IMG/VR virus record: IMGVR_UViG_3300032257_000002
Coordinates: 64,001-103,505 of that record
From: a virus
Taxonomy: Duplodnaviria > Heunggongvirae > Uroviricota > Caudoviricetes
Direction: 5' to 3' (one strand)
Length of the DNA: 39,505 bases
The notes under the pieces: generated by a model
Told to the model about the DNA's origin: nothing
Database searches by the model: none
What the model saw: only the letters and a program-made list of their open reading frames with translations
Translations under genes and position numbers: made by a program
Shown: one piece after another, positions 3,210 to 35,097 of the stretch
Layout: every line of letters begins with the position of its first letter
Numbering within the stretch: position 1 is the first letter of the stretch

Positions 3210-3635
3210 CTATCGCTCGTCTAAGATAGACTGTAGCTGTTCTTCAGGACCTTCGAAATTAGCAGGCTTTGTAAGTTTGCCGTGTTCGTCTTTAGGCATC
3301 TGAAGTTTAGCTAGGTTCGCATGCATGACAACGTTCAGTGCTTTAGTAGCCTGCTGTGGTGTGAGACCTAGCTTGAATATGGATCCGAATGCAAAGACTA
3401 TTTTATCAAGTGCCTTATCCAGACGATCTACGTCTTTAAGATTATAGTCGTTGTTCTTCAGATCTTGAAGAAGTTCACGAGCAAAAGTCTTGGCATCATA
3501 GTTACCAAGCAAGTCTTCGTGACCTTCAAGGGACTCTTCAATAGTGAAGGTGTCTTCTAGGAAGTCGGAGTAACCGTTCTCTAAAAGACCTGCTTCCTTA
3601 TTAAAGCGGTAGATTTCCTTAATAGGATTAGTCAT
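3210..3635 (-). CDS. MazG-like / PRA-PH family nucleoside triphosphate pyrophosphohydrolase
   Basis: EESLE ... DKALDKIVFAFG ... VMHANLAK ... DEHGKLTKP pattern typical of phage MazG-like proteins. Confidence 0.8.
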   Translation of the reverse strand: MTNPIKEIYRFNKEAGLLENGYSDFLEDTFTIEESLEGHEDLLGNYDAKTFARELLQDLKNNDYNLKDVDRLDKALDKIVFAFGSIFKLGLTPQQATKALNVVMHANLAKLQMPKDEHGKLTKPANFEGPEEQLQSILDER

Positions 3636-4038
3636 TGGTTACCTTTCGTGTTGGTATACTGCAAGATTCCAGAAAGTAAATACCTTCAGGTTCTTTGTAT
3701 AGTTCGGAGTATACTACTTCTGTAATACCTGACTGAGCTATAAGCTTGGCACAAGTCTTGCAAGGTGAGTGTGTGATATAGAGAGTAGCACCTTTAGTAG
3801 GGATACCTTCTCTAGCACAATATGTGATAACATTCTGTTCTGCATGAAGGGTGAACTCTGAAGTAGAGCCATCATCGCACTCACAAGTATTCGGCATACC
3901 AGAGATAGTGCCGTTGTATCCGATGTTCAGAATACGGCCTTCTTTGGCAAGTACGGCACCTACCTGTTTGCGTTTACAGTAAGACTGCTTAGCAAATGTG
4001 TAGGCTGTCTGTATCATAGCAGAGTCATACTTTGTCAT
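3628..4038 (-). CDS. dCMP deaminase
   Basis: CKRKQVGAV, GYNG, HAEQN and SPCKTC Zn motifs; likely start ATG 4038. Confidence 0.92.
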   Translation of the reverse strand: MTKYDSAMIQTAYTFAKQSYCKRKQVGAVLAKEGRILNIGYNGTISGMPNTCECDDGSTSEFTLHAEQNVITYCAREGIPTKGATLYITHSPCKTCAKLIAQSGITEVVYSELYKEPEGIYFLESCSIPTRKVTND

Positions 4039-10636: not shown

Positions 10637-10802
10637 TAAAGTCCTTTAAGAGTGGATTGGGTGATGAACACCAGCGAACAGACTTTCGCAACAAGTCTGC
10701 TCAAGGAATACACCAATGTTTGAGGCATGGGCTTACATCATTCTACTTTAAACGTATCTCCGCGGTGAGGCAGAACAGAAGGTAGAGAACGAATGCCATT
10801 GA
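10637..10802 (-). ncRNA. Structured intergenic segment, candidate leader or small RNA
   Basis: Only long non-coding gap in the area; 10-bp stem GAGCAGACUU/AAGUCUGUUC plus CUCAA/UUGAG, GGUG/CACC and GGCAU/AUGCC pairings. Confidence 0.3.
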
Positions 10803-11051
10803 TTAGATGAATAGTTCAGGATAGCAATCCGCTATCATTTCTAGGACCTGTTCAGAAGTAACCTTGTCTTCTGTAAGTGCGAGTGAGTAAGCTTCAGGTA
10901 CACCTGCTACAAATAATGCAATAATGTGTTGACAAGATTCTATATCATAGAAAGTACTAGCGGTAAAGTGTAAGCCTGTTCGTACATTAAGTATACGAGC
11001 AACTTGATTAAGTAGTGCGCTCTGTGAAAGTTGTAAGTCGATATGTGCCAT
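10803..11051 (-). CDS. Hypothetical protein, tag YPELFI
   Basis: ORF with AGGA RBS and terminal tag. Confidence 0.8.
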   Translation of the reverse strand: MAHIDLQLSQSALLNQVARILNVRTGLHFTASTFYDIESCQHIIALFVAGVPEAYSLALTEDKVTSEQVLEMIADCYPELFI

Positions 11052-11059
11052 AATAATCC

Positions 11060-11626
11060 TTAGTGTTTAACGAACTGCGGAGTCTGAGTAGCTGCCTGCG
11101 AAGTCCAGCAGTAATCGCAGTCGATCCCGCATTGTTTTGTCTTGTCAAGTGTAGATGGGCAGATAAATCGTGACGGATCTAGATTAGCTAGTTTGTCGTA
11201 ATTCAGTCCACCGGATTGCAGTGAGTCGATGAGTGTGAAGTTCGGAAGGGCTTGTAAACTAGTGAAGTCAAAGTCTTTCAGTCGTTTTGTAAAGGCGTAG
11301 AACTTAATAGATGGTAATGTGCTGGCTATTGCTGTCCATGACTCTATGTATGACTGCGAATAAAATTCTCCAGAAGCATGAAGTCGGATTGCTTTAAATG
11401 GTTTTCTAATAGCTTTTATTTCTTTTACCATATTAGGTATAAAATCAGTTTGTTTGGACGCCTCATACCGCGCGTTTCTTGCCGGTATTACTGAAGTAGG
11501 AAATCGTTTTTGTTCACGTAGGCTGTAGCACCCGGGACACTCTCTTCCACATACTTCTTTTGATGTGATAATATTAAACATATATTGGTTATGTAGTTTC
11601 TGGTTTCCTGGTTGTAGTAGTTTCAT
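11060..11626 (-). CDS. Gp88-like protein with CxxxCxxC motif (radical-SAM-like)
   Basis: VCGRECPGCY, IRLHASGEFYS, FYAFTK; start lies inside the endonuclease 3-prime end with its own AGGA RBS. Confidence 0.75.
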   Translation of the reverse strand: MKLLQPGNQKLHNQYMFNIITSKEVCGRECPGCYSLREQKRFPTSVIPARNARYEASKQTDFIPNMVKEIKAIRKPFKAIRLHASGEFYSQSYIESWTAIASTLPSIKFYAFTKRLKDFDFTSLQALPNFTLIDSLQSGGLNYDKLANLDPSRFICPSTLDKTKQCGIDCDYCWTSQAATQTPQFVKH

Positions 11627-12317
11627 TGTCTAATCCTAGTATGTCTATTATAAAGAGTTCGGTATTACCACTTGAAAGTAAGGCAGGACCTTGGTATTTA
11701 TACTCTTTGTATTGCCGCAATATCCGAGTCTCCTCTTCCAGTGCACCTAATCCTTCTGTGTATTTCCAGACTTTAAGGATTGTTATTGTTTTCAAATCGG
11801 CTACTAGAAATCTTTCCTCCACAGAACGATTAGTTATACCTATCTTGTAAGCTTGTCCGTTATTGATTGATATATAGTATAAGTATCCAGGTAGTTGTGT
11901 TTTAAACCCACCATCATACAGTTGACACTTTCCGCATCCATGCCCTTTTAAATGGTGATTTGGGGTTTGTGTAAACTTTCCATGTTCTGGGCAGACAATA
12001 GTAATTTTTGTGTGAATGTTTTTATATACCACATTACTATAATTATACTTATTTTTATGTGTTATGGAGGCAGTTTCTATAAAGTCTTCTTGAGCGGTAG
12101 AAAATTTAGCGGCCAGTTTATCATACTGACATTGTCGACAGCCTCTTCCTTTATTCTGTAAGTGGTTATTAGGGGTTTGTTGAAATTCCCCATGAGTAGG
12201 GCAAGTAATTACTACTTTTGTGCGATTATTTTTATAGACTGTGTTATTATAGGTATAAAAATTATTATGTAGTAGTTGGGCTTCTTTTATAAATTCTGCT
12301 GTTGTTTTCTTTTTCAT
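11589..12317 (-). CDS. Free-standing putative homing endonuclease (CxxC repeats plus T5orf172/GIY-YIG-like C-terminus)
   Basis: Two ITCPxHG.F.QTP..HL..GC..C repeats; YLYYI..YKIGIT..R..GNTELF. Confidence 0.8.
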   Translation of the reverse strand: MKKKTTAEFIKEAQLLHNNFYTYNNTVYKNNRTKVVITCPTHGEFQQTPNNHLQNKGRGCRQCQYDKLAAKFSTAQEDFIETASITHKNKYNYSNVVYKNIHTKITIVCPEHGKFTQTPNHHLKGHGCGKCQLYDGGFKTQLPGYLYYISINNGQAYKIGITNRSVEERFLVADLKTITILKVWKYTEGLGALEEETRILRQYKEYKYQGPALLSSGNTELFIIDILGLDNETTTTRKPETT

Positions 12318-12333
12318 GTAAAACCTTTACTGC

Positions 12334-12356
12334 ATAATACCCTACACTACGTTAAA
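12334..12356 (-). promoter_or_regulatory. TTTAAC-N11-TATTAT promoter variant
   Basis: 17 nt upstream of ATG 12317, N11 spacing. Confidence 0.55.
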
Positions 12357-12362
12357 ATCAGC

Positions 12363-12452
12363 TTAACTGCATACAGCTTTGCCTGCTGGGATAGAGAAGA
12401 TTAGCTGGTGTTTAAGTTTGCCGTTTTCGTATTTCAGTAGTTTTTCAGTCAT
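12363..12452 (-). pseudogene. Stranded original N-terminus of the Gp88-like gene (MTEKLLKYENGKLKHQLIFSIPAGKAVCS*)
   Basis: 12/25 identical, ungapped, to the N-terminus of 11060..11626; starts by ATGA overlap with the upstream gene. Confidence 0.85.
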
Positions 12453-12772
12453 ATCAAGACCTCCGGGTAGTTAGTTTGTAAGTATTTATAGAATGATGGG
12501 TGTGAATCCTGTATACGTTGTGTAGGTGTAGCTTGCATGTAGAAGTCGTGTCTGTCGAAGTACACCTCTAGCCATTCTAGAAATGCAGGAGTGCATTGTA
12601 AAGGCTCATCTAATATAAAGACTTTATTGCGGGTTAATGAAATCTCGCAAATAAGAGCTTGTCTATCTATATACGTACAGTCTACGTAACACCCATTCAG
12701 TTTATCTGCTAACTCCTTTAAGTAGGTAGTTTTTCCAGAAGATCGTGGGCGTAGCATAAATTCTTTAATCAT
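12449..12772 (-). CDS. Small P-loop-like protein, tag YPEVLI
   Basis: RPRSSGKTT Walker A-like, FILDEP Walker B-like. Confidence 0.75.
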   Translation of the reverse strand: MIKEFMLRPRSSGKTTYLKELADKLNGCYVDCTYIDRQALICEISLTRNKVFILDEPLQCTPAFLEWLEVYFDRHDFYMQATPTQRIQDSHPSFYKYLQTNYPEVLI

Positions 12773-13014
12773 ATGTATAACTCCGGGTAGTGGATTTTAA
12801 ATTCCTGTTCATCGAAAATAAGGTCACGTACATAGTAGTATCTGTCATCATCACGTTCTTTGTAGCTAATAACTTCAAGCTGTAGTTTGCTGTAGTCGAT
12901 TGCAGGATAAGTTTCTTCTATATAGGCTTCTATATGATGATGTAGATCACTAGTAGATACACTGCTGTGTAGTCCTGCAAGAAGATCGTAAAGCTCAGAA
13001 CGAATTAATGTCAT
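12769..13014 (-). CDS. Hypothetical protein, tag YPELYI
   Basis: ATGA-coupled ORF with terminal tag. Confidence 0.8.
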   Translation of the reverse strand: MTLIRSELYDLLAGLHSSVSTSDLHHHIEAYIEETYPAIDYSKLQLEVISYKERDDDRYYYVRDLIFDEQEFKIHYPELYI

Positions 13015-13211
13015 ATTAAGTACTCCGGATATTGATGTTTAAATTCTTGCAAGCGTTTATAAGCTACGCAAAATGATCGTTGACACTTGCGTTGATCCTT
13101 TCTGTAACCTCTCTCTATTTCGTTGTGGTTATACGCATAGACATAACTATACCAATAGTCGTAGTCCATAGCGAGAAGATAAAGTTTATCGTCAAATTCT
13201 TTTTTAGTCAT
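13011..13211 (-). CDS. Hypothetical protein, tag YPEYLI
   Basis: ATGA-coupled ORF with terminal tag. Confidence 0.8.
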   Translation of the reverse strand: MTKKEFDDKLYLLAMDYDYWYSYVYAYNHNEIERGYRKDQRKCQRSFCVAYKRLQEFKHQYPEYLI

Positions 13212-13429
13212 ATTAGCAGTTCTGGGTAGTACTTAGCGATCAACTTATCTAGTAACTCTAGTTTTTGGACTAGCTCCTTACCAGTAATCTGATAGGAGTC
13301 TATGCTAACGGTCGTGTCTGCATGTATAGTTATAGACGCAAATAATGAAGTATCGGAGAGACTACTATTAGTAATATAGCTGTTCTGCACAGTACAAGTA
13401 TTTAAAGTAGTTGATGTCAGTTGATTCAT
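13208..13429 (-). CDS. Hypothetical protein, tag YPELLI
   Basis: ATGA-coupled ORF with terminal tag. Confidence 0.8.
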   Translation of the reverse strand: MNQLTSTTLNTCTVQNSYITNSSLSDTSLFASITIHADTTVSIDSYQITGKELVQKLELLDKLIAKYYPELLI

Positions 13430-13632
13430 ATGTAAACCTCCGGATAATGTTGTTTAACAAGCTCAATAACAGTTGATAATGGTAAACCGCCGAAGTGTTC
13501 CTTGCACAAGTCCCGTTCATTCGTTTGTTTTATTCGGCGTTGCACTTCGTCACAAATATGCGCTTCGGCCTTATAATAACCATCAGCTAAGGCAAACTGA
13601 CTTTCCGAGTATGTTGTAGGGTTAAGTGTCAT
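13426..13632 (-). CDS. Hypothetical protein, tag YPEVYI
   Basis: ORF overlapping the pol stop, with terminal tag. Confidence 0.8.
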   Translation of the reverse strand: MTLNPTTYSESQFALADGYYKAEAHICDEVQRRIKQTNERDLCKEHFGGLPLSTVIELVKQHYPEVYI

Positions 13633-23618: not shown

Positions 23619-23635
23619 TATTATCCTTTACGTAT

Positions 23636-23658
23636 ATTATACTGCTATGTAGCTTAAT
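23636..23658 (-). promoter_or_regulatory. ATTAAG-N11-TATAAT promoter
   Basis: 18 nt upstream of ATG 23618; TTGCAA also lies 16 nt before the -10 element. Confidence 0.7.
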
Positions 23659-29620: not shown

Positions 29621-30336
29621 TCATGATCCTTTAAAGTTTTTAAAATTATTTCTTTATTTTTAATAGCATAACATTCTTGTTTTCCATGAAATTGTAGTTT
29701 TGGTAAATATTTATATTGATGATAGCTATTATGAAACGTTTGCTCTAATTCACATATATATCTTGGTGACCCTTCAATTATTTGAAGAACTTTCCATTGA
29801 TACGCCATATTGTATTTTCCATTGAAACGACGTTCTAACGTGTTAAATGTTTTACCTATTTTAAGAAAACGTTCTTCTTCATTCCAGCACTCAATTATAT
29901 AGACTTTGTAACCGTTTTTCTCTTTTCCTTGTTCAATCCAATCGGAGTAACGCCATCCTCCATGTGTTTTACAGTGTGGGCATCCAGCTCCTCTTTTATG
30001 ATCTGCTGGTCTTTGTTCAAAATATGACTCGCAGTTATTACAAAAAATTGTTACTTTTGCCTGGTTTGTTTGATATACAGTATTACTGTAATCATATTTA
30101 TCACCATGACAAATTTGAGCTTTAGAGATAAACTCGTTTGCTGCTTTAAGTTTATTTTGTTCTGCTACTTGTTTTGCAGAGCATGATGAACATGCAGCAT
30201 TTGGATTTTGTTTATGCTGTTCTGATCTAATTTCTTTTTCTATACCGCAACTATTACATTTACATAGGTAGTAACGTCTTGTTCGTTTAGAATTGCTATT
30301 AATTAAGCGTGTTCCTAAGTCTTTAATAAAAATCAT
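29617..30336 (-). CDS. Free-standing putative homing endonuclease, same CxxC / T5orf172-like family
   Basis: HGDKYDYS...C..C...F.Q...H..G.GCP.C; VYIIE..LKIGKT..R..ECY; likely start ATG 30336. Confidence 0.78.
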   Translation of the reverse strand: MIFIKDLGTRLINSNSKRTRRYYLCKCNSCGIEKEIRSEQHKQNPNAACSSCSAKQVAEQNKLKAANEFISKAQICHGDKYDYSNTVYQTNQAKVTIFCNNCESYFEQRPADHKRGAGCPHCKTHGGWRYSDWIEQGKEKNGYKVYIIECWNEEERFLKIGKTFNTLERRFNGKYNMAYQWKVLQIIEGSPRYICELEQTFHNSYHQYKYLPKLQFHGKQECYAIKNKEIILKTLKDHE

Positions 30337-30401: not shown

Positions 30402-30659
30402 CTATATAAACAATTCTGGGTGTGATTGTTTTGTAGGTAGCTCGTTGAATGCACCTGCAATTAAGTAATGTCTACCTGCAGCCCATTTTGACATAGTATC
30501 TAAAGAAATAGTACGAGGAAAGTTCCAGCTACCTATATAATCAAAAGGAAGTGATAAACATTCAGTAATGGCATCACTCCAATCTATAGAAGATTGATGA
30601 GATTCAGGGCACATTAGTATAAACTCATTATCCCATTGATCTTGTATTAAGTAATACAT
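30402..30659 (-). CDS. MYYLI-family protein, tag HPELFI
   Basis: Paralog of 31253..31510. Confidence 0.82.
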   Translation of the reverse strand: MYYLIQDQWDNEFILMCPESHQSSIDWSDAITECLSLPFDYIGSWNFPRTISLDTMSKWAAGRHYLIAGAFNELPTKQSHPELFI

Positions 30660-30667
30660 GAAATATC

Positions 30668-30970
30668 CTAAATTAGTAGTTCTGGGAATTTTGTTAAGAA
30701 GTCAGATGGATGTTCGGCTTTAGCGAGATGAATTGTTTGTATGTATAGATCGCTGTTGCTTCTTAATGCTTTACAATATTCTTCAATCGTAGAGAAATCA
30801 TGCATAACAATGGTTCCATCGTCATCATCAGGTGCTTCGCAACCTTCAATAGCAGTATGGACGATTTCTTGTAGTGATCCCCATTGACCATTTCCATGCC
30901 AGCAGTTTTTGATGTCGTCAATAATTGCAAATGAATCCCGAGCTTCTTGGTCAGTGATAAGATGGTACAT
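30668..30970 (-). CDS. MYHLI-family protein, tag FPELLI
   Basis: AAGGA RBS, terminal tag. Confidence 0.8.
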   Translation of the reverse strand: MYHLITDQEARDSFAIIDDIKNCWHGNGQWGSLQEIVHTAIEGCEAPDDDDGTIVMHDFSTIEEYCKALRSNSDLYIQTIHLAKAEHPSDFLTKFPELLI

Positions 30971-30979
30971 AAAATTCCT

Positions 30980-31243
30980 TTAAATAAATAATTCTGGATA
31001 AGATGTTTTAAACCAAGCTAAATCACGATCTTGGAATTCAGAGATAAGTGGAGTAATAAGTTGTCTAAAGTTTAATTCGTATACTTCACGAGTACGACTT
31101 TCAGATAAAGTTTCACAGGCTCTACTTGCTGGGCAATTATCACATACTCCGGTAGTCGAACATTCTGCGTAATCAGCTAAATCTGTAACATGTCCTTGTT
31201 CCACTGCTTGTAAAAAATTGATGTACATAGTTATAGGGTGCAT
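30980..31243 (-). CDS. Four-Cys hypothetical protein, tag YPELFI
   Basis: CSTTGVCDNCPASRAC. Confidence 0.8.
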   Translation of the reverse strand: MHPITMYINFLQAVEQGHVTDLADYAECSTTGVCDNCPASRACETLSESRTREVYELNFRQLITPLISEFQDRDLAWFKTSYPELFI

Positions 31244-31252
31244 AGGTGTCCT

Positions 31253-31510
31253 TTAAATAAATAATTCTGGGTGAGACTGTTTTGTAGGTAACTCGTCGTA
31301 AGTACTAATAAGTTTCCAGTCATATCCTTCGGCCCATTCACGCATTCCTGATTCAGATTGATCATCAGGGTAAGTCCATTCGTGAGCACCATCTGTCACT
31401 AAGTTAAAACATTTTGAAATACTGTTATACCAGTCATACGATGACCTGTTATTTTTAGGGTTTACAATAATATAATCAAAATTAATAGGGTCGTAAATGA
31501 GATAATACAT
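31253..31510 (-). CDS. MYYLI-family protein, tag HPELFI
   Basis: Paralog of 30402..30659. Confidence 0.82.
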   Translation of the reverse strand: MYYLIYDPINFDYIIVNPKNNRSSYDWYNSISKCFNLVTDGAHEWTYPDDQSESGMREWAEGYDWKLISTYDELPTKQSHPELFI

Positions 31511-31518
31511 AGAAATAC

Positions 31519-33771
31519 TTAAAATAAACGAGCTATCTGATTTTGCATTGCTTCTGAGCGAACTTCTTCGAATGGTACATCCCAGTATTCTTGAATATCT
31601 GCGTAGAGTGATTTAGCGTCTTCCAAAGAACCGCCGAGCTCACGAAGATGGTACATAGCTCGTATAACATTACGAGATGCAGAACCCCATGGGGCTTCAA
31701 ATGCGTAGTTGAACGTAGTGAGTGGATCTTTCAATTGTGCTGATTTTTGAGCAGAGGTAAATGTCTGATCTTTGTGCTTTTTATCGGCTTCCAGTTCTTT
31801 GGCACGAATGAGATAAGGACGAGCTTCCAATGGAGAAGCATCTAGGTTGGAAATAACTGGACGATCGGCATAGCTAAAGAATATTTGAGATTGAGGTAGT
31901 GGATCTACTCTGAGCGCCAAGTCTTCTGCTATACCTAGATAGAAGTGCTTCCAAGCAATCGGTGAAAGTTCGACGGTAGAGTCTAGCTCGATGAGTACTC
32001 GGAACTTGTACTCGTTGTCAGGATCACTAGATAAGGCGATATGATGGTTTATGTCGGATAGCATGAAGTGAGCTTCAGATGCTGTAATAGGTGAATCATC
32101 TATGTCTAAGACTACCCACTTGGTTCCACCAAGAATGTTTTCTTTACCGCGAACTCCGTTACGGAATTTAAACGGTGAATAAGCATAGTCACCTTCTAAT
32201 AGGTTTGAGAGATCGTTGAAAGTAGTATCGTTGACATCAAAGCCATATGCGGTAGTGACAGAGATATCATGTTTAGCAGTTCTTACAGCTTCAGAATCAC
32301 CATTAGTGATAGCAATGTTAAGTCGTGTACAATCAATGGGTTTAAATGATATGCCCACAACTTCAGTTTTAATAATCGGTTCATATTGTAATGCACCTCC
32401 TTCGTTGATTATTGAGTAAATACCAGAGGTATCGTAGCCGGAAGCTAGGTGAACTAGTTCTTGCAGCTTTCCATGGGATACTGAGGTTACGTAGTTGTTT
32501 TTCTTTAGGTCATATACAGATATAACTGCTTTGCCGTTTTCTTGTACTTGAGTTTTCATAAAATCTGCAAAATGTTCATAAGGCGATTTACTAATTTCGG
32601 TTTCGAAGTTGTGTATATCATCAGATAGCATCTCAATAAATTGCATAGCTTGTTCGTAGTGATGTTTCTGTATACTAGAAGCTTTCTCTATGAAGGCAAA
32701 TGTAGAAGATAGTTTTAAAGCACGCCACTGATTGTGTAAACGTACAAGAGAACTTAGAGAATCGGGATTGGTTGACTGAGCTACGTAATCTTTATTATAT
32801 CTTCGGTAAAGTTTGAATAATTGATCTACTTCAGTACTAACTGGTAAAGGTGTGTTAGCGTGAGTAATCCCATATTTAGCAACATCAATAAAGTAGTCTT
32901 CTATTAATTCTCTTGCTTTTGCGGCTTTATCATCTTGGACTTCTTCATATTCTAGTAGTAATAGGGGATCGTTGCTGAAATCAGGTTCAGGTAAAACTTC
33001 GTTGTTGAAGTATATTATAGATCTACGAGCTAGTTTAGAAGCTAGTGCATTTATAAATTTATGCCTAACTGCTTCATTGTACATAAGAATATTATAGCTA
33101 CCCATTAAAAGAGCGTTAGTAGGTACACCTGTTAGCTTTTTAGATCGGAATTCAGAACCTTTTGTGTTTTTAGCTGGTATATCCCCTAGATCATAAGAGA
33201 TTGCTAATGCTTTAATCAACTCGTCTGTGTCCTTGTTGCTGGAGAATTCATCACTCATTTCTGAGGTTACGACTAAAGGGGCTCCTAGAGGCGCTGTCAT
33301 GATTTCTTCTGCCAAGGCTACAAAACCTGGAGCAGTAGTAAATGCTGTCTCATAAGTAGGACAGTATTTGCGGTAGTTGTTATACACTTCAGGTACACTA
33401 GGTAATTCCTCACCAGCTTTCTGTGCTTCTTCTATAGCTTTTTGAACCAAGGTATCTTCTACATGGGCATCGATAATTTTGTAAGCTTTAGCAAATGCTT
33501 TAGAAGCCATCTTGTAAGAGGAGTCTTTACCTACTCCTGAACCGGCGGCAATCACCGTGATAGCGTTAGTAGGGCAGATGGTGCCGTCTTTGAGTTCTGC
33601 AGATCGTCTGAACTGTGAGGCAAAAGTGGTTAATACGCTTACTGCAATTGTGTATTTCATACGGTCAGGCACGTTAATTACAATAGTGTCTGAAATTTGT
33701 TTAATTAGGTCGTTAGCCTTTGGGTTAAGAGCTTGGCCTAAAGTTTGCGTTAGCGAATTTAGCATTGACAT
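31519..33771 (-). CDS. N4 gp43-like primase: N-terminal P-loop domain plus C-terminal AEP primase domain
   Basis: AGSGVGKDS Walker A; WVVLDIDD and HIALSS...KFRV AEP-type motifs; start inside the endonuclease 3-prime end with an AAGGA RBS. Confidence 0.75.
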   Translation of the reverse strand: MSMLNSLTQTLGQALNPKANDLIKQISDTIVINVPDRMKYTIAVSVLTTFASQFRRSAELKDGTICPTNAITVIAAGSGVGKDSSYKMASKAFAKAYKIIDAHVEDTLVQKAIEEAQKAGEELPSVPEVYNNYRKYCPTYETAFTTAPGFVALAEEIMTAPLGAPLVVTSEMSDEFSSNKDTDELIKALAISYDLGDIPAKNTKGSEFRSKKLTGVPTNALLMGSYNILMYNEAVRHKFINALASKLARRSIIYFNNEVLPEPDFSNDPLLLLEYEEVQDDKAAKARELIEDYFIDVAKYGITHANTPLPVSTEVDQLFKLYRRYNKDYVAQSTNPDSLSSLVRLHNQWRALKLSSTFAFIEKASSIQKHHYEQAMQFIEMLSDDIHNFETEISKSPYEHFADFMKTQVQENGKAVISVYDLKKNNYVTSVSHGKLQELVHLASGYDTSGIYSIINEGGALQYEPIIKTEVVGISFKPIDCTRLNIAITNGDSEAVRTAKHDISVTTAYGFDVNDTTFNDLSNLLEGDYAYSPFKFRNGVRGKENILGGTKWVVLDIDDSPITASEAHFMLSDINHHIALSSDPDNEYKFRVLIELDSTVELSPIAWKHFYLGIAEDLALRVDPLPQSQIFFSYADRPVISNLDASPLEARPYLIRAKELEADKKHKDQTFTSAQKSAQLKDPLTTFNYAFEAPWGSASRNVIRAMYHLRELGGSLEDAKSLYADIQEYWDVPFEEVRSEAMQNQIARLF

Positions 33772-34669
33772 TAAAGTCCTTTATAATTAAATTTAAAATG
33801 TTTCTAGAAAATAGTTCAGTATTGCCGGACGAAAGTAACGGATCTCCTGTATACTTATAGTTGCTATATTTTTTAAGTATACTTTGCTCCATTTGATAAG
33901 CTGTAGAAGCTGCCGGAAAATCCCATAAATATAGTATGTTAATACTAGTAAGTTCTTTTACTAAGAATCTTTCGTTCACAGTTCGGTTAGTAATACCTAT
34001 TTTGTATGCTTCTCCGTTATTAATAGATAAATAATACAATATAGCCGGTTTAGTTAAATTAAAGCCGTGTAAAGCACAATGCGGACAGCCACGGGTTCTT
34101 AGTAAATTATCAGGAGTAGTCTTGAAAGTACCTCCACATTTATGGCGTACTTCAATCTTAGTTCTTGCAGTAACGTAGTTTCCTACTACAGTATAGTCAG
34201 TACCCAATTTTTTAGAAAAGTTTTTAGCTGCTTGTACTTGTTTATCTTTATTTGTCTGTATTAGTTTTTGCACTGAACACACTTTGCAAGTTTTAGCTTT
34301 TAGATGGTTAATAGGTATTACAAGGGATACAGTTGCACAGCTGTTATGTTTTATTACTACTGGTGTTAAAGCATTTTTATAAACTACTTTAGCGTAGTCA
34401 AAAGCATCACCATGTATAGCTTTAGCCTCAGTAACAAATTCTTCCGTAGTTTTAGTTCTACTATCAGGCGTATCTTTGGAACAATGGGGGCATCCCTGTT
34501 TTCCAGATAAGTGATTATTAGGTTTCATAGCAAAAACACCGTGCTGTCTGCAAGTAATTTTTACTTTTGTATGACTAGTTGTATACACGGTATTTTCGTA
34601 AGTGTACATGTTATTATGTACTGCATTGGCTTTAGTTTTGAATTCTTCAGTAGTTAATCGTATAGGCAT
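33725..34669 (-). CDS. Free-standing putative homing endonuclease, paralog of 11589..12317
   Basis: Three CxxC repeats; LYYLSINNGEAYKIGITNRT..ERF..LLSSGNTELF nearly matches the 11589 ORF. Confidence 0.8.
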   Translation of the reverse strand: MPIRLTTEEFKTKANAVHNNMYTYENTVYTTSHTKVKITCRQHGVFAMKPNNHLSGKQGCPHCSKDTPDSRTKTTEEFVTEAKAIHGDAFDYAKVVYKNALTPVVIKHNSCATVSLVIPINHLKAKTCKVCSVQKLIQTNKDKQVQAAKNFSKKLGTDYTVVGNYVTARTKIEVRHKCGGTFKTTPDNLLRTRGCPHCALHGFNLTKPAILYYLSINNGEAYKIGITNRTVNERFLVKELTSINILYLWDFPAASTAYQMEQSILKKYSNYKYTGDPLLSSGNTELFSRNILNLIIKDFNVNAKFANANFRPSS

Positions 34670-34695
34670 ATAAGCTCTTCTTGTTTATTTCCTAT

Positions 34696-34718
34696 ACTAT
34701 AGCATATAAAGACTTAAA
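34696..34718 (-). promoter_or_regulatory. TTTAAG-N11-TATAGT promoter
   Basis: 27 nt upstream of ATG 34669; its TAA is also the stop of the stranded fragment. Confidence 0.65.
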
Positions 34719-34821
34719 GTACACTGATTGCTGTAACAATCTGTTTTACATGACCGTTAAGTGATGGGGTCAAAGCATTGTGTGTATCTAGTTCTTTTTT
34801 ACAGATTTCTAGCATTGTCAT
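34714..34821 (-). pseudogene. Stranded original N-terminus of the primase (MTMLEICKKELDTHNALTPSLNGHVKQIVTAISVL*)
   Basis: 12 identities to primase residues 1-32 with one 2-aa gap; AGGA RBS at the normal operon position. Confidence 0.78.
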
Positions 34822-34830
34822 TTTGTGTCC

Positions 34831-35097
34831 TTAGATAAAGTATTCTGGATATTTAAGTTTAAGCTCTTCGAAGTTTGAGATATTAAGTGGAGTACAGGTA
34901 GTAATAGTATCACCACCATCTGTTTTCATCTTATCAGGAAGAAAAGTAGTGTTATTGGCCATATTTTTAGTTAGTTGGTATAGAGCTGTTTCTGCGGTCT
35001 CGCACCATGGTCCGGCATTAAAACCTTTAAGTATTTTAAAATCAGAATTAGCTACTGCGTAGTGGAATTCCATCTCACGTTTTAACAAGTAGTACAT
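34831..35097 (-). CDS. MYYLL-family protein, tag YPEYFI
   Basis: AAGGA RBS, terminal tag. Confidence 0.8.
   Translation of the reverse strand: MYYLLKREMEFHYAVANSDFKILKGFNAGPWCETAETALYQLTKNMANNTTFLPDKMKTDGGDTITTCTPLNISNFEELKLKYPEYFI

Follow-up and report, generated by a model that had tools for sequence, protein, structure and literature searches.

How can an endonuclease gene come to lie across the front of a conserved phage gene, with a second, short copy of that gene's start left upstream of it and the gene itself still whole? The question is raised by a locus on a 39,505-nucleotide (nt) stretch of DNA, here called the window, from a 103.5-kb viral contig with terminal repeats; all window coordinates below are on the minus strand. 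At this locus, a gene for a predicted endonuclease separates a complete gene of the Gp88 family from a 29-codon open reading frame (ORF), referred to here as the stub, which resembles the first codons of Gp88. The locus is most probably a product of homing by double-strand-break repair, through which a free-standing endonuclease became lodged at the 5' end of Gp88. The genes follow one another in the order w107, an ATGA overlap, the stub, a 45-nt spacer, the endonuclease, and Gp88, and the features of the locus are as follows.

12449..12772, minus strand: w107, the upstream operon gene, 107 amino acids (aa), with a C-terminal ..YPEVLI tag; its TGA (12451-12449) overlaps the stub ATG
12363..12452, minus strand: stranded Gp88 5' stub of the K-Y-E-N type; 28 homologous codons, then Ser and TAA
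12318..12366, minus strand: left end of the cassette, with TTAAG, a -10-like word, and the endonuclease ribosome-binding site (RBS) TAAAGG
12318-12362, minus strand: spacer of 45 nt, from the stub to the endonuclease ORF
11589..12317, minus strand: endonuclease ORF, 242 aa, with its own ATG, RBS, and stop codon
11624..11637, minus strand: Gp88 start signals (AGGA 11634-11637, ATG 11626-11624), within the endonuclease coding sequence (..GLDNE..)
11543..11626, minus strand: working 5' end of Gp88, Q-x-G-N type, codons 1-28; a diverged duplicate of the stub
11528..11551, minus strand: CX3CX2C codons (C26, C30, C33); the stub terminates in the matching stretch of its own gene
11060..11626, minus strand: working Gp88-family gene (PF17338), complete, 188 aa

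The stub occupies the coupled position in the operon, its ATG (12452-12450) sharing an ATGA word with the TGA of w107 (12451-12449), and it is truncated past the first Cys of the CX3CX2C motif. The working gene overlaps the endonuclease ORF by 38 nt, its AGGA RBS is placed 7 nt upstream of its ATG, and the TTAGACAATGAAA word at this start is also the word that supplies the start in a related locus, L030. The endonuclease and Gp88 are read in different frames and there is no in-frame fusion, as the stub closes with TAA and the endonuclease starts from a separate RBS and ATG. An Rfam search of positions 10700-12900 gave zero matches at E <= 1, group I and II introns included. No splicing is needed, because Gp88 is restored as one uninterrupted 188-aa ORF, co-linear over its whole length with endonuclease-free homologues of 186-190 aa. 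An earlier note on this DNA had described the 29-codon ORF with 12 of 25 residues identical to the Gp88 start, its place in the normal ATGA-coupled position, the working start and AGGA RBS 38 nt within the endonuclease ORF, the lack of room for a ribozyme core, and the restoration of the gene without splicing; all of this holds on re-examination.

The identity of the stub depends on variation within the Gp88 family. The 188-aa protein matches PF17338 (E 2.4e-20, 73.8 bits against a curated cut-off of 24.4), and its 122 homologues are mostly 186-190 aa long. The three cysteines of the CX3CX2C motif and four more are invariant among 56 homologues, and Gp88 is a radical S-adenosylmethionine-like protein with an iron-sulfur CX3CX2C motif. 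The N-termini of the family split into two types, marked by K-Y-E-N (K-type) and Q-x-G-N (Q-type). The working start is of the Q-type, identical at 26/26 positions to P0001 and at 23/26 to P0002. Its 12/25 identities with the stub are ungapped and give a local score of 60, where mismatched flank pairs have a 99th percentile of 49. The stub comes closer to the N-termini of other homologues, with 24/29 identities to P0011 and 23/29 to each of P0012, P0021, and P0051; a tblastn search with it found 88% identity to L007 and 82% to L009. Residues typical of K-Y-E-N-type N-termini (those present in at least 5% of them) occupy 24 of its 25 positions. Because the flank score beats the null, and because the starts of other homologues match so closely, the likeness of the stub to Gp88 starts is not due to chance. 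By these comparisons, the stub is a true 5' end of Gp88, one that belongs to a different allele type. On the core-gene tree, the N-terminal type requires at least five switches that are forced by well-supported branches.

The 242-aa protein encoded between the two starts combines two tandem CapR/DUF723 zinc-finger modules of the DNA-binding kind with a C-terminal domain that resembles T5orf172/MUG113 (GIY-YIG-like), as identified with Pfam. Both CapR and DUF723 exceed the Pfam cut-offs, and the protein matches phrog_681, 'endonuclease', with E 7e-54. Among 24 homologues, the Y..Y/KIG.T/R/E..GNTELF positions are invariant. The structure model has a mean confidence score (pLDDT) of 90.5; the last 10 residues score below 50 and correspond to an unstructured read-through tail covering the Gp88 start. 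A Foldseek search of the whole three-domain model against the PDB returned nothing at E <= 0.001. The protein is a predicted nuclease, and its gene is of the free-standing homing type, outside any intron or intein. In the endonuclease genes, 30-33% of two-fold codons end in C and the G + C content at third codon positions is 0.23-0.27; the core genes have 47-59% C-ending two-fold codons, and in the stub 7/7 end in C. Because of this composition, the stub is phage-like and the AT-rich endonuclease genes look foreign.

From this arrangement we infer cleavage by the endonuclease, the position of the cut, immunity, and an order of events in this genome. The endonuclease gene would have entered along with the adjoining 5' part of a donor Gp88, which would have brought an RBS and ATG embedded in the 3' end of the endonuclease gene. 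The first 28 codons of the resident gene would have been left as a dead stub in the ATGA-coupled slot, closed by the TAA at the cassette end. Where homology upstream was missing, repair would have been one-sided, with an illegitimate left junction that produced the stub; once made, a stub could itself act as a left homology arm. Neither copy would retain an intact target, since the stub retains the left part of the K-type sequence but lacks everything beyond nt 86 and the working copy is of the Q-type in codons 5-22; the carrier would thereby be shielded from the enzyme that it encodes. The cut may fall at about nt 60-90, near the CX3CX2C codons.

Relatives with and without the endonuclease

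Relatives were sought in two collections. In a phage GenBank collection, the DNA search gave just short matches to the endonuclease gene and the protein search just distant relatives of Gp88. A scan of IMG/VR with the single Gp88 sequence found no match, and an alignment-based scan found 16 loci. A search of IMG/VR for closer relatives through the polymerase gave a best match of 66% identity, and the same search through w107 returned the window's own protein alone.

Across these related genomes, the endonuclease is sporadic at this one locus. It is present in the window, L003, L004, L018, L030, and L195, and absent from L002, L005/L006, L007-L009, L191, and L194. The nearest endonuclease-free relative is L002 (Gp88 allele P0001), with 88% aa identity in Gp88 and 90% in the polymerase. 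It carries a w107 homologue at the same place (64% aa identical) that overlaps Gp88 directly through ATGA, and the window differs from it by an 822-nt block, 11627-12448, which comprises the stub and the endonuclease and lies between two ATGA words. The genes found upstream of Gp88 vary among relatives (w107, DUF7205, a 94-aa ORF, or polymerase), and because of these differences left-hand homology would often be missing.

The clearest mosaic is found in L003, which has the same layout as the window: a 28-codon stub that ends at the same nt 86, a 299-aa endonuclease, and a Q-type working start. Its stub is 26/27 identical to the N-terminus of an endonuclease-free allele, P0005 (L005/L006), and from nt 64 onward its working gene is 94% identical to the P0005/L005 DNA. 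Nucleotides 1-63 of its Gp88 are instead ~97% identical to an occupied allele, L004; together with the last ~50 nt of the endonuclease gene they are nearly identical to L004, against a background of 65-70%. In the working gene of L003, a cassette-linked 5' end thus gives way abruptly, at a single junction within nt 60-68, to a core that resembles the empty allele.

Mosaic boundaries that adjoin the endonuclease also occur elsewhere. The first ~95 aa of P0019 are ~45% identical to those of the K-type allele P0020 and the remainder is ~93% identical; P0019 is counted as occupied because the 3' end of an endonuclease gene (GNTELF..*) is visible upstream of it in L195. In the pair P0010 and P0047, ~87 aa at ~45% are followed by 97% identity. 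The 5' tracts in the allele pairs are therefore of ~21, ~87, and ~95 codons. A third stub, of 22 codons, is present in L030, and L004 and L018 have the endonuclease without a stub. By a hand count, an endonuclease adjoins 4/7 Q-type starts on K-group cores (plus one possible remnant) and 1/~9 K-type alleles, counts that are too small to carry weight.

Two further observations concern individual loci. In L004 (3394-3957), the gene for P0003 was called 15 codons late, as a 172-aa product; it was called short because its actual start falls within the endonuclease ORF. In L193, a 190-nt non-coding gap (760-950) with an endonuclease-promoter-like word and a 5-codon ORF lies upstream of the Q-type allele P0027. 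The gap shares a 16-nt promoter-like identity with L030 and gave no significant protein match; it may be a decayed endonuclease gene.

How much of Gp88 may have been replaced

Several observations weigh against a homing origin of the locus, or against its simplest form. The Gp88 of L002, which stands in the ATGA slot, begins with the working type of N-terminus (26/26) and not with the stub type, and the window and L002 genes are co-linear with no breakpoint near codon 28. Synonymous divergence (dS) between them is 1.17 in Gp88 and 0.83 in the polymerase, both near saturation; as the value for Gp88 is not below that for the polymerase, there is no sign of recent gene import. In an approximately unbiased (AU) test, a tree that groups the window clade with a natively Q-type clade was not rejected (p 0.19), and the Q-type start could therefore be ancestral to the window clade. 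The L003 stub differs from the L005 start at 13/81 nt, of which 12 are synonymous, more than expected from a core dS of 0.25, and thus the L003 stub and core do not have one simple common history. In L030, the working start is K-like and near-identical to its own stub up to the stub end, which misfits a simple rule of immunity by divergence. As to the enzyme, the matches to T5orf172 and MUG113 fall under the curated Pfam cut-offs (19 bits against 20-22.3), and the similarity of the C-terminal domain to the GIY-YIG folds of Slx1, HIGLE, UvrC-N, I-TevI, and EndoII is weak (Z 3.0-4.7, VIA-align).

In this genome, whose nearest empty relative, L002, begins with the working N-terminus, the imported tract would comprise at least the first ~21 codons and might extend up to the whole gene. 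The earlier note had placed the insertion at about codon 29, with a diverged N-terminus brought in, and had expected empty alleles to match the stub and then the downstream body. The first claim describes L003 when set against P0005 and L004, and P0019 and P0010 with longer tracts, and the second describes L003 against P0005, where the stranded copy matches the empty allele at the protein level (26/27) with excess synonymous change. Neither carries over to the window, where the Q-type L002 matches the working start, shows no breakpoint, and gives the outcome that the note itself had set down as contrary to its claim.

The pattern in L003, when compared with L005 and L004, suggests a resident gene with a stub-type start and the present core, in which the cassette replaced just the first ~21-28 codons. 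For the window, this history comes fairly close to an even chance. The stub is pristine, at 24/25 K-type-typical residues, and phage-like in composition, which suggests that the invaded allele was K-type, in a phage of such composition, and that the invasion was recent; in L191, which follows L002 in polymerase similarity (66%), the coupled slot holds a K-type start. Against it stand the Q-type start of L002, the lack of a breakpoint between the window and L002, and the alleles with stub-like starts, whose cores are just 55-59% identical to that of the window; no endonuclease-free allele was found that joins a stub-like start to a window-like core.

The full-length co-linearity of the working gene with L002 is accommodated if one-sided homing exchanged the whole of a K-type gene, or most of it. 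The donor would have carried the endonuclease and an L002-like Gp88, and with an illegitimate left junction just the 5' stub would have survived. Long tracts of ~87-95 codons are seen elsewhere (P0010 and P0019), the variable upstream genes mean that left homology is often missing, and one-sided illegitimate repair is known in T4. This version is possible, if somewhat doubtful: it needs a donor Gp88 whose divergence from L002 happens to match that of the genome at large, and no right-hand junction was found. The DNA similarity to L002 fades 32 nt beyond the Gp88 stop, but the small genes there are poorly conserved in any case.

That the difference from L002 is exactly the 822-nt block between two ATGA words also allows the stub to have been a passenger. 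Gp88 would then be natively Q-type, as in L002, and the stub and endonuclease (11627-12448) would have arrived together from a donor in which a stub had been stranded earlier. The Gp88 dS, at about the level of the genome, agrees with this, and the L003 stub is not closely related to the core of its own gene, which would be expected of stubs that are carried along as a left homology arm. We consider it improbable nonetheless: a Q-type recipient should be immune if divergence at the start confers immunity, the donor must have had a homologous upstream gene, and the codon usage of the stub is unlike that of the endonuclease.

Accounts without homing fare worse than any of these forms of it. The two copies lie as direct repeats, the arrangement that would result if the gene start had been locally duplicated in tandem and had then diverged, with the endonuclease inserted later; but the stub is 83% identical to the starts of other phages against 46-48% to the adjacent working start, the copies are of different N-terminal types, and the same layout is found at other genes, so that this origin, or a chance likeness of an unrelated small ORF, is very unlikely. 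We give almost no credence to readings in which the stub is the authentic first exon and is connected to the gene body through a group I or II intron, an intein, translational bypass, or trans-splicing. These were rejected on the Rfam null and on the anatomy: the endonuclease ORF is separated from the stub by just 45 nt and from Gp88 by none, a stop codon closes the stub, and the working ORF already has a full N-terminus and the length of uninterrupted homologues, such that joining would duplicate 28 residues.

Recurrence in the genome and the endonuclease family

The layout is not confined to Gp88. The genome has four paralogues of the endonuclease, and a second cassette of the same kind is present at the primase gene (window 31519-34821), with the following parts.

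34714..34821, minus strand: second stub, a primase 5' end of 35 codons, preceding the paralogous endonuclease
33725..34669, minus strand: paralogous endonuclease, 314 aa, 42% identical, overlapping the working primase start by 47 nt
31519-33771, minus strand: primase, with its start 47 nt inside the paralogous endonuclease ORF

The primase stub scores 57, 53, and 45 against the N-termini of homologues, compared with 32, 25, and 19 for the working primase start. A third paralogue (L188, 246 aa) lies in the same genome outside the window, at G000:C1 ~3275-3937, and a 31-codon ORF occupies the coupled slot before it. The end of this ORF shares 10/15 residues with the start of a downstream HExxH-containing gene, with a marginal score of 41, and it is probably the stub of a third cassette. 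The fourth and more distant endonuclease-like paralogue (L190, 241 aa, window ~29659-30225) has no flank duplication.

The cassettes also share their left ends. In the window, the TTAAG word contains the stop codon of the stub; next come a TAGTGTAGG/TAGTATA-like word that resembles a -10 element and then TAAAGG. The same layout of TTAAG, -10-like word, and RBS precedes the paralogous endonuclease at 34669 and those in L003, L026, L030, and L188. A motif of TTAAG, 8-16 nt, and a TAGTATA-like word occurs 4 times in the window, where 0.5 occurrences would be expected, and may be a promoter; a scan for sigma-70 promoters and terminators found nothing that exceeded shuffled background. Two of the following sites precede endonuclease genes, and one is a further site.

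12341-12366, minus strand: TTAAG...TAGTATA-like motif, before the Gp88-locus endonuclease
34691-34717, minus strand: TTAAG...TAGTATA-like motif, before the paralogous endonuclease
23633-23657, minus strand: TTAAG...TAGTATA-like motif, further site

To extend the comparison, 160 further loci of the endonuclease family were fetched, and 147 loci in all were tested for similarity between their flanks. The duplication score was 60 or more in 19/147, against a 99th percentile of 49 in the null. After manual removal of duplicates, internal zinc-module repeats, and low-complexity DNA, ~9 distinct cases of duplicated gene ends were left, and the endonuclease-family loci among them include these.

L040:398-2090: 5' stub of DNA polymerase
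L098:2387-4847: 5' stub of NAPRTase
L026:344-1963: 5' stub of an unknown gene
L050:267-1288: stranded 3' end, in mirror geometry

Flanking direct repeats of 129-150 nt were also seen in L113 and L078/L130.

Relation to known endonucleases

To our knowledge, homing endonucleases have been thought to persist in essential genes just by means of introns or inteins, or else to lie between genes. The cassettes described here would represent a third route in phages, in which the element carries its own copy of the front end of the gene and the start signals form part of the endonuclease gene; the target remains an intact gene, and its former start persists as a stub. They have much in common with the SegF, SegG, and MobE endonucleases of T4-like phages and the T5orf172 and CapR endonucleases of vibriophage ICP1, which are likewise intergenic genes without an intron or intein (PMC2988022; PMC10448857). 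These known endonucleases show the same sporadic presence in close relatives, adjoining mosaic boundaries, and co-converted flanks, and the make-up of CapR/DUF723 repeats and a T5orf172 domain is the one described for ICP1. Unlike them, the window cassette is inserted within the coding region of the recipient's target, has a stranded 5' stub, and supplies the working start and RBS from inside the endonuclease ORF. Term searches of PMC2988022 and PMC10448857 yielded no account of duplicated gene ends.

One-sided homing with illegitimate junctions was demonstrated experimentally in T4, according to PMC2988022, which cites Parker et al. 1999. As described there, the element is acquired with homology on one side and the other junction forms at microhomology, and repair of this type predicts a leftover piece of the recipient beside the element. 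The T4 case was a laboratory construct with an intron; the products in the window and its relatives are natural, recurrent, and intronless, and the gene would be kept functional by the donor 5' end. In Aeromonas phage Aeh1, a free-standing endonuclease gene, mobE, likewise lies in the region of an essential gene, nrdA, without splicing (cited in PMC10448857). There, the gene consists of two necessary pieces that work together as separate peptides; in the window, Gp88 is complete without the stub, which is redundant, and the contrast drawn in the earlier note is sustained, as the stub is a homologous duplicate of the working start and the ORF downstream has its full length.

Another near precedent is found in fungal mitochondria, where endonuclease ORFs bring replacement 3' ends to atp6 in Allomyces macrogynus and to atp6, atp9, cox2, and nad3 in Glomus (PMC3630166). 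In these genes, too, a diverged duplicate of a gene end flanks the endonuclease, the foreign inserted copy is used, and the native copy is stranded (PMC3630166). The window cassette can be seen as a 5' form of the same arrangement, and the parallel with Allomyces atp6 that the earlier note had drawn is apt: a gene end is duplicated and diverged, and the copy linked to the element is the one in use. It differs from the fungal elements in affecting the 5' end, in lacking an in-frame endonuclease fusion (cf. Glomus atp6 and nad3), in its nuclease family, and in its setting in a phage operon with translational coupling. The locus L050, which belongs to the same endonuclease family as the window, has the 3' geometry of the fungal cases. 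No description of 5' replacement in phages was found in the searched literature; as far as these papers show, the 5' form in a phage operon is a new variant, with its 3' mirror known from fungal mitochondria.

If these cassettes arise as proposed, each stub is a concrete and datable trace of an individual homing event, and it indicates the probable region of the cut, near the codons of the iron-sulfur cysteine motif. The cassettes would also explain the mosaic 5' ends in the conserved Gp88 family. More tentatively, the endonuclease, promoter, replacement 5' end, and stub might be inherited as a single composite element, with the coding regions of essential genes in phages as its homing targets. 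In such an element, the left homology arm would be the stub, which might also act as an operator beside the endonuclease promoter; the diverged start would give immunity, and repeated visits and losses would drive the swapping of N-terminal types and leave footprint alleles such as L002. The homing endonuclease I-TevI binds an operator that is similar to its homing site. There is also a warning for annotation: a short ORF that occupies an operon slot before an endonuclease gene can be a relic, and the true start of a gene can sit within the endonuclease ORF.

Other features of these genomes were noted in passing. Downstream in L193 (2101-4512) are a SegE-type GIY-YIG gene and a gene for the large subunit of ribonucleotide reductase that was called as two pieces. 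In L005 (1-2700), the DNA polymerase gene is in three pieces with NUMOD4 and HNH_3 endonuclease ORFs between them, for which introns or a split gene are possible explanations. Successive small genes in the window (10803-13632 and, for example, 30402-31510 and 34831-35097) end in a common C-terminal tag, YPE[LV][LFY]I or HPELFI, which is also present in the relatives L002, L003, L004, L191, and L193. The codons of the tag (..CCGGAG..) contain the RBS of the next gene, whose ATG overlaps the stop codon as ATGA.

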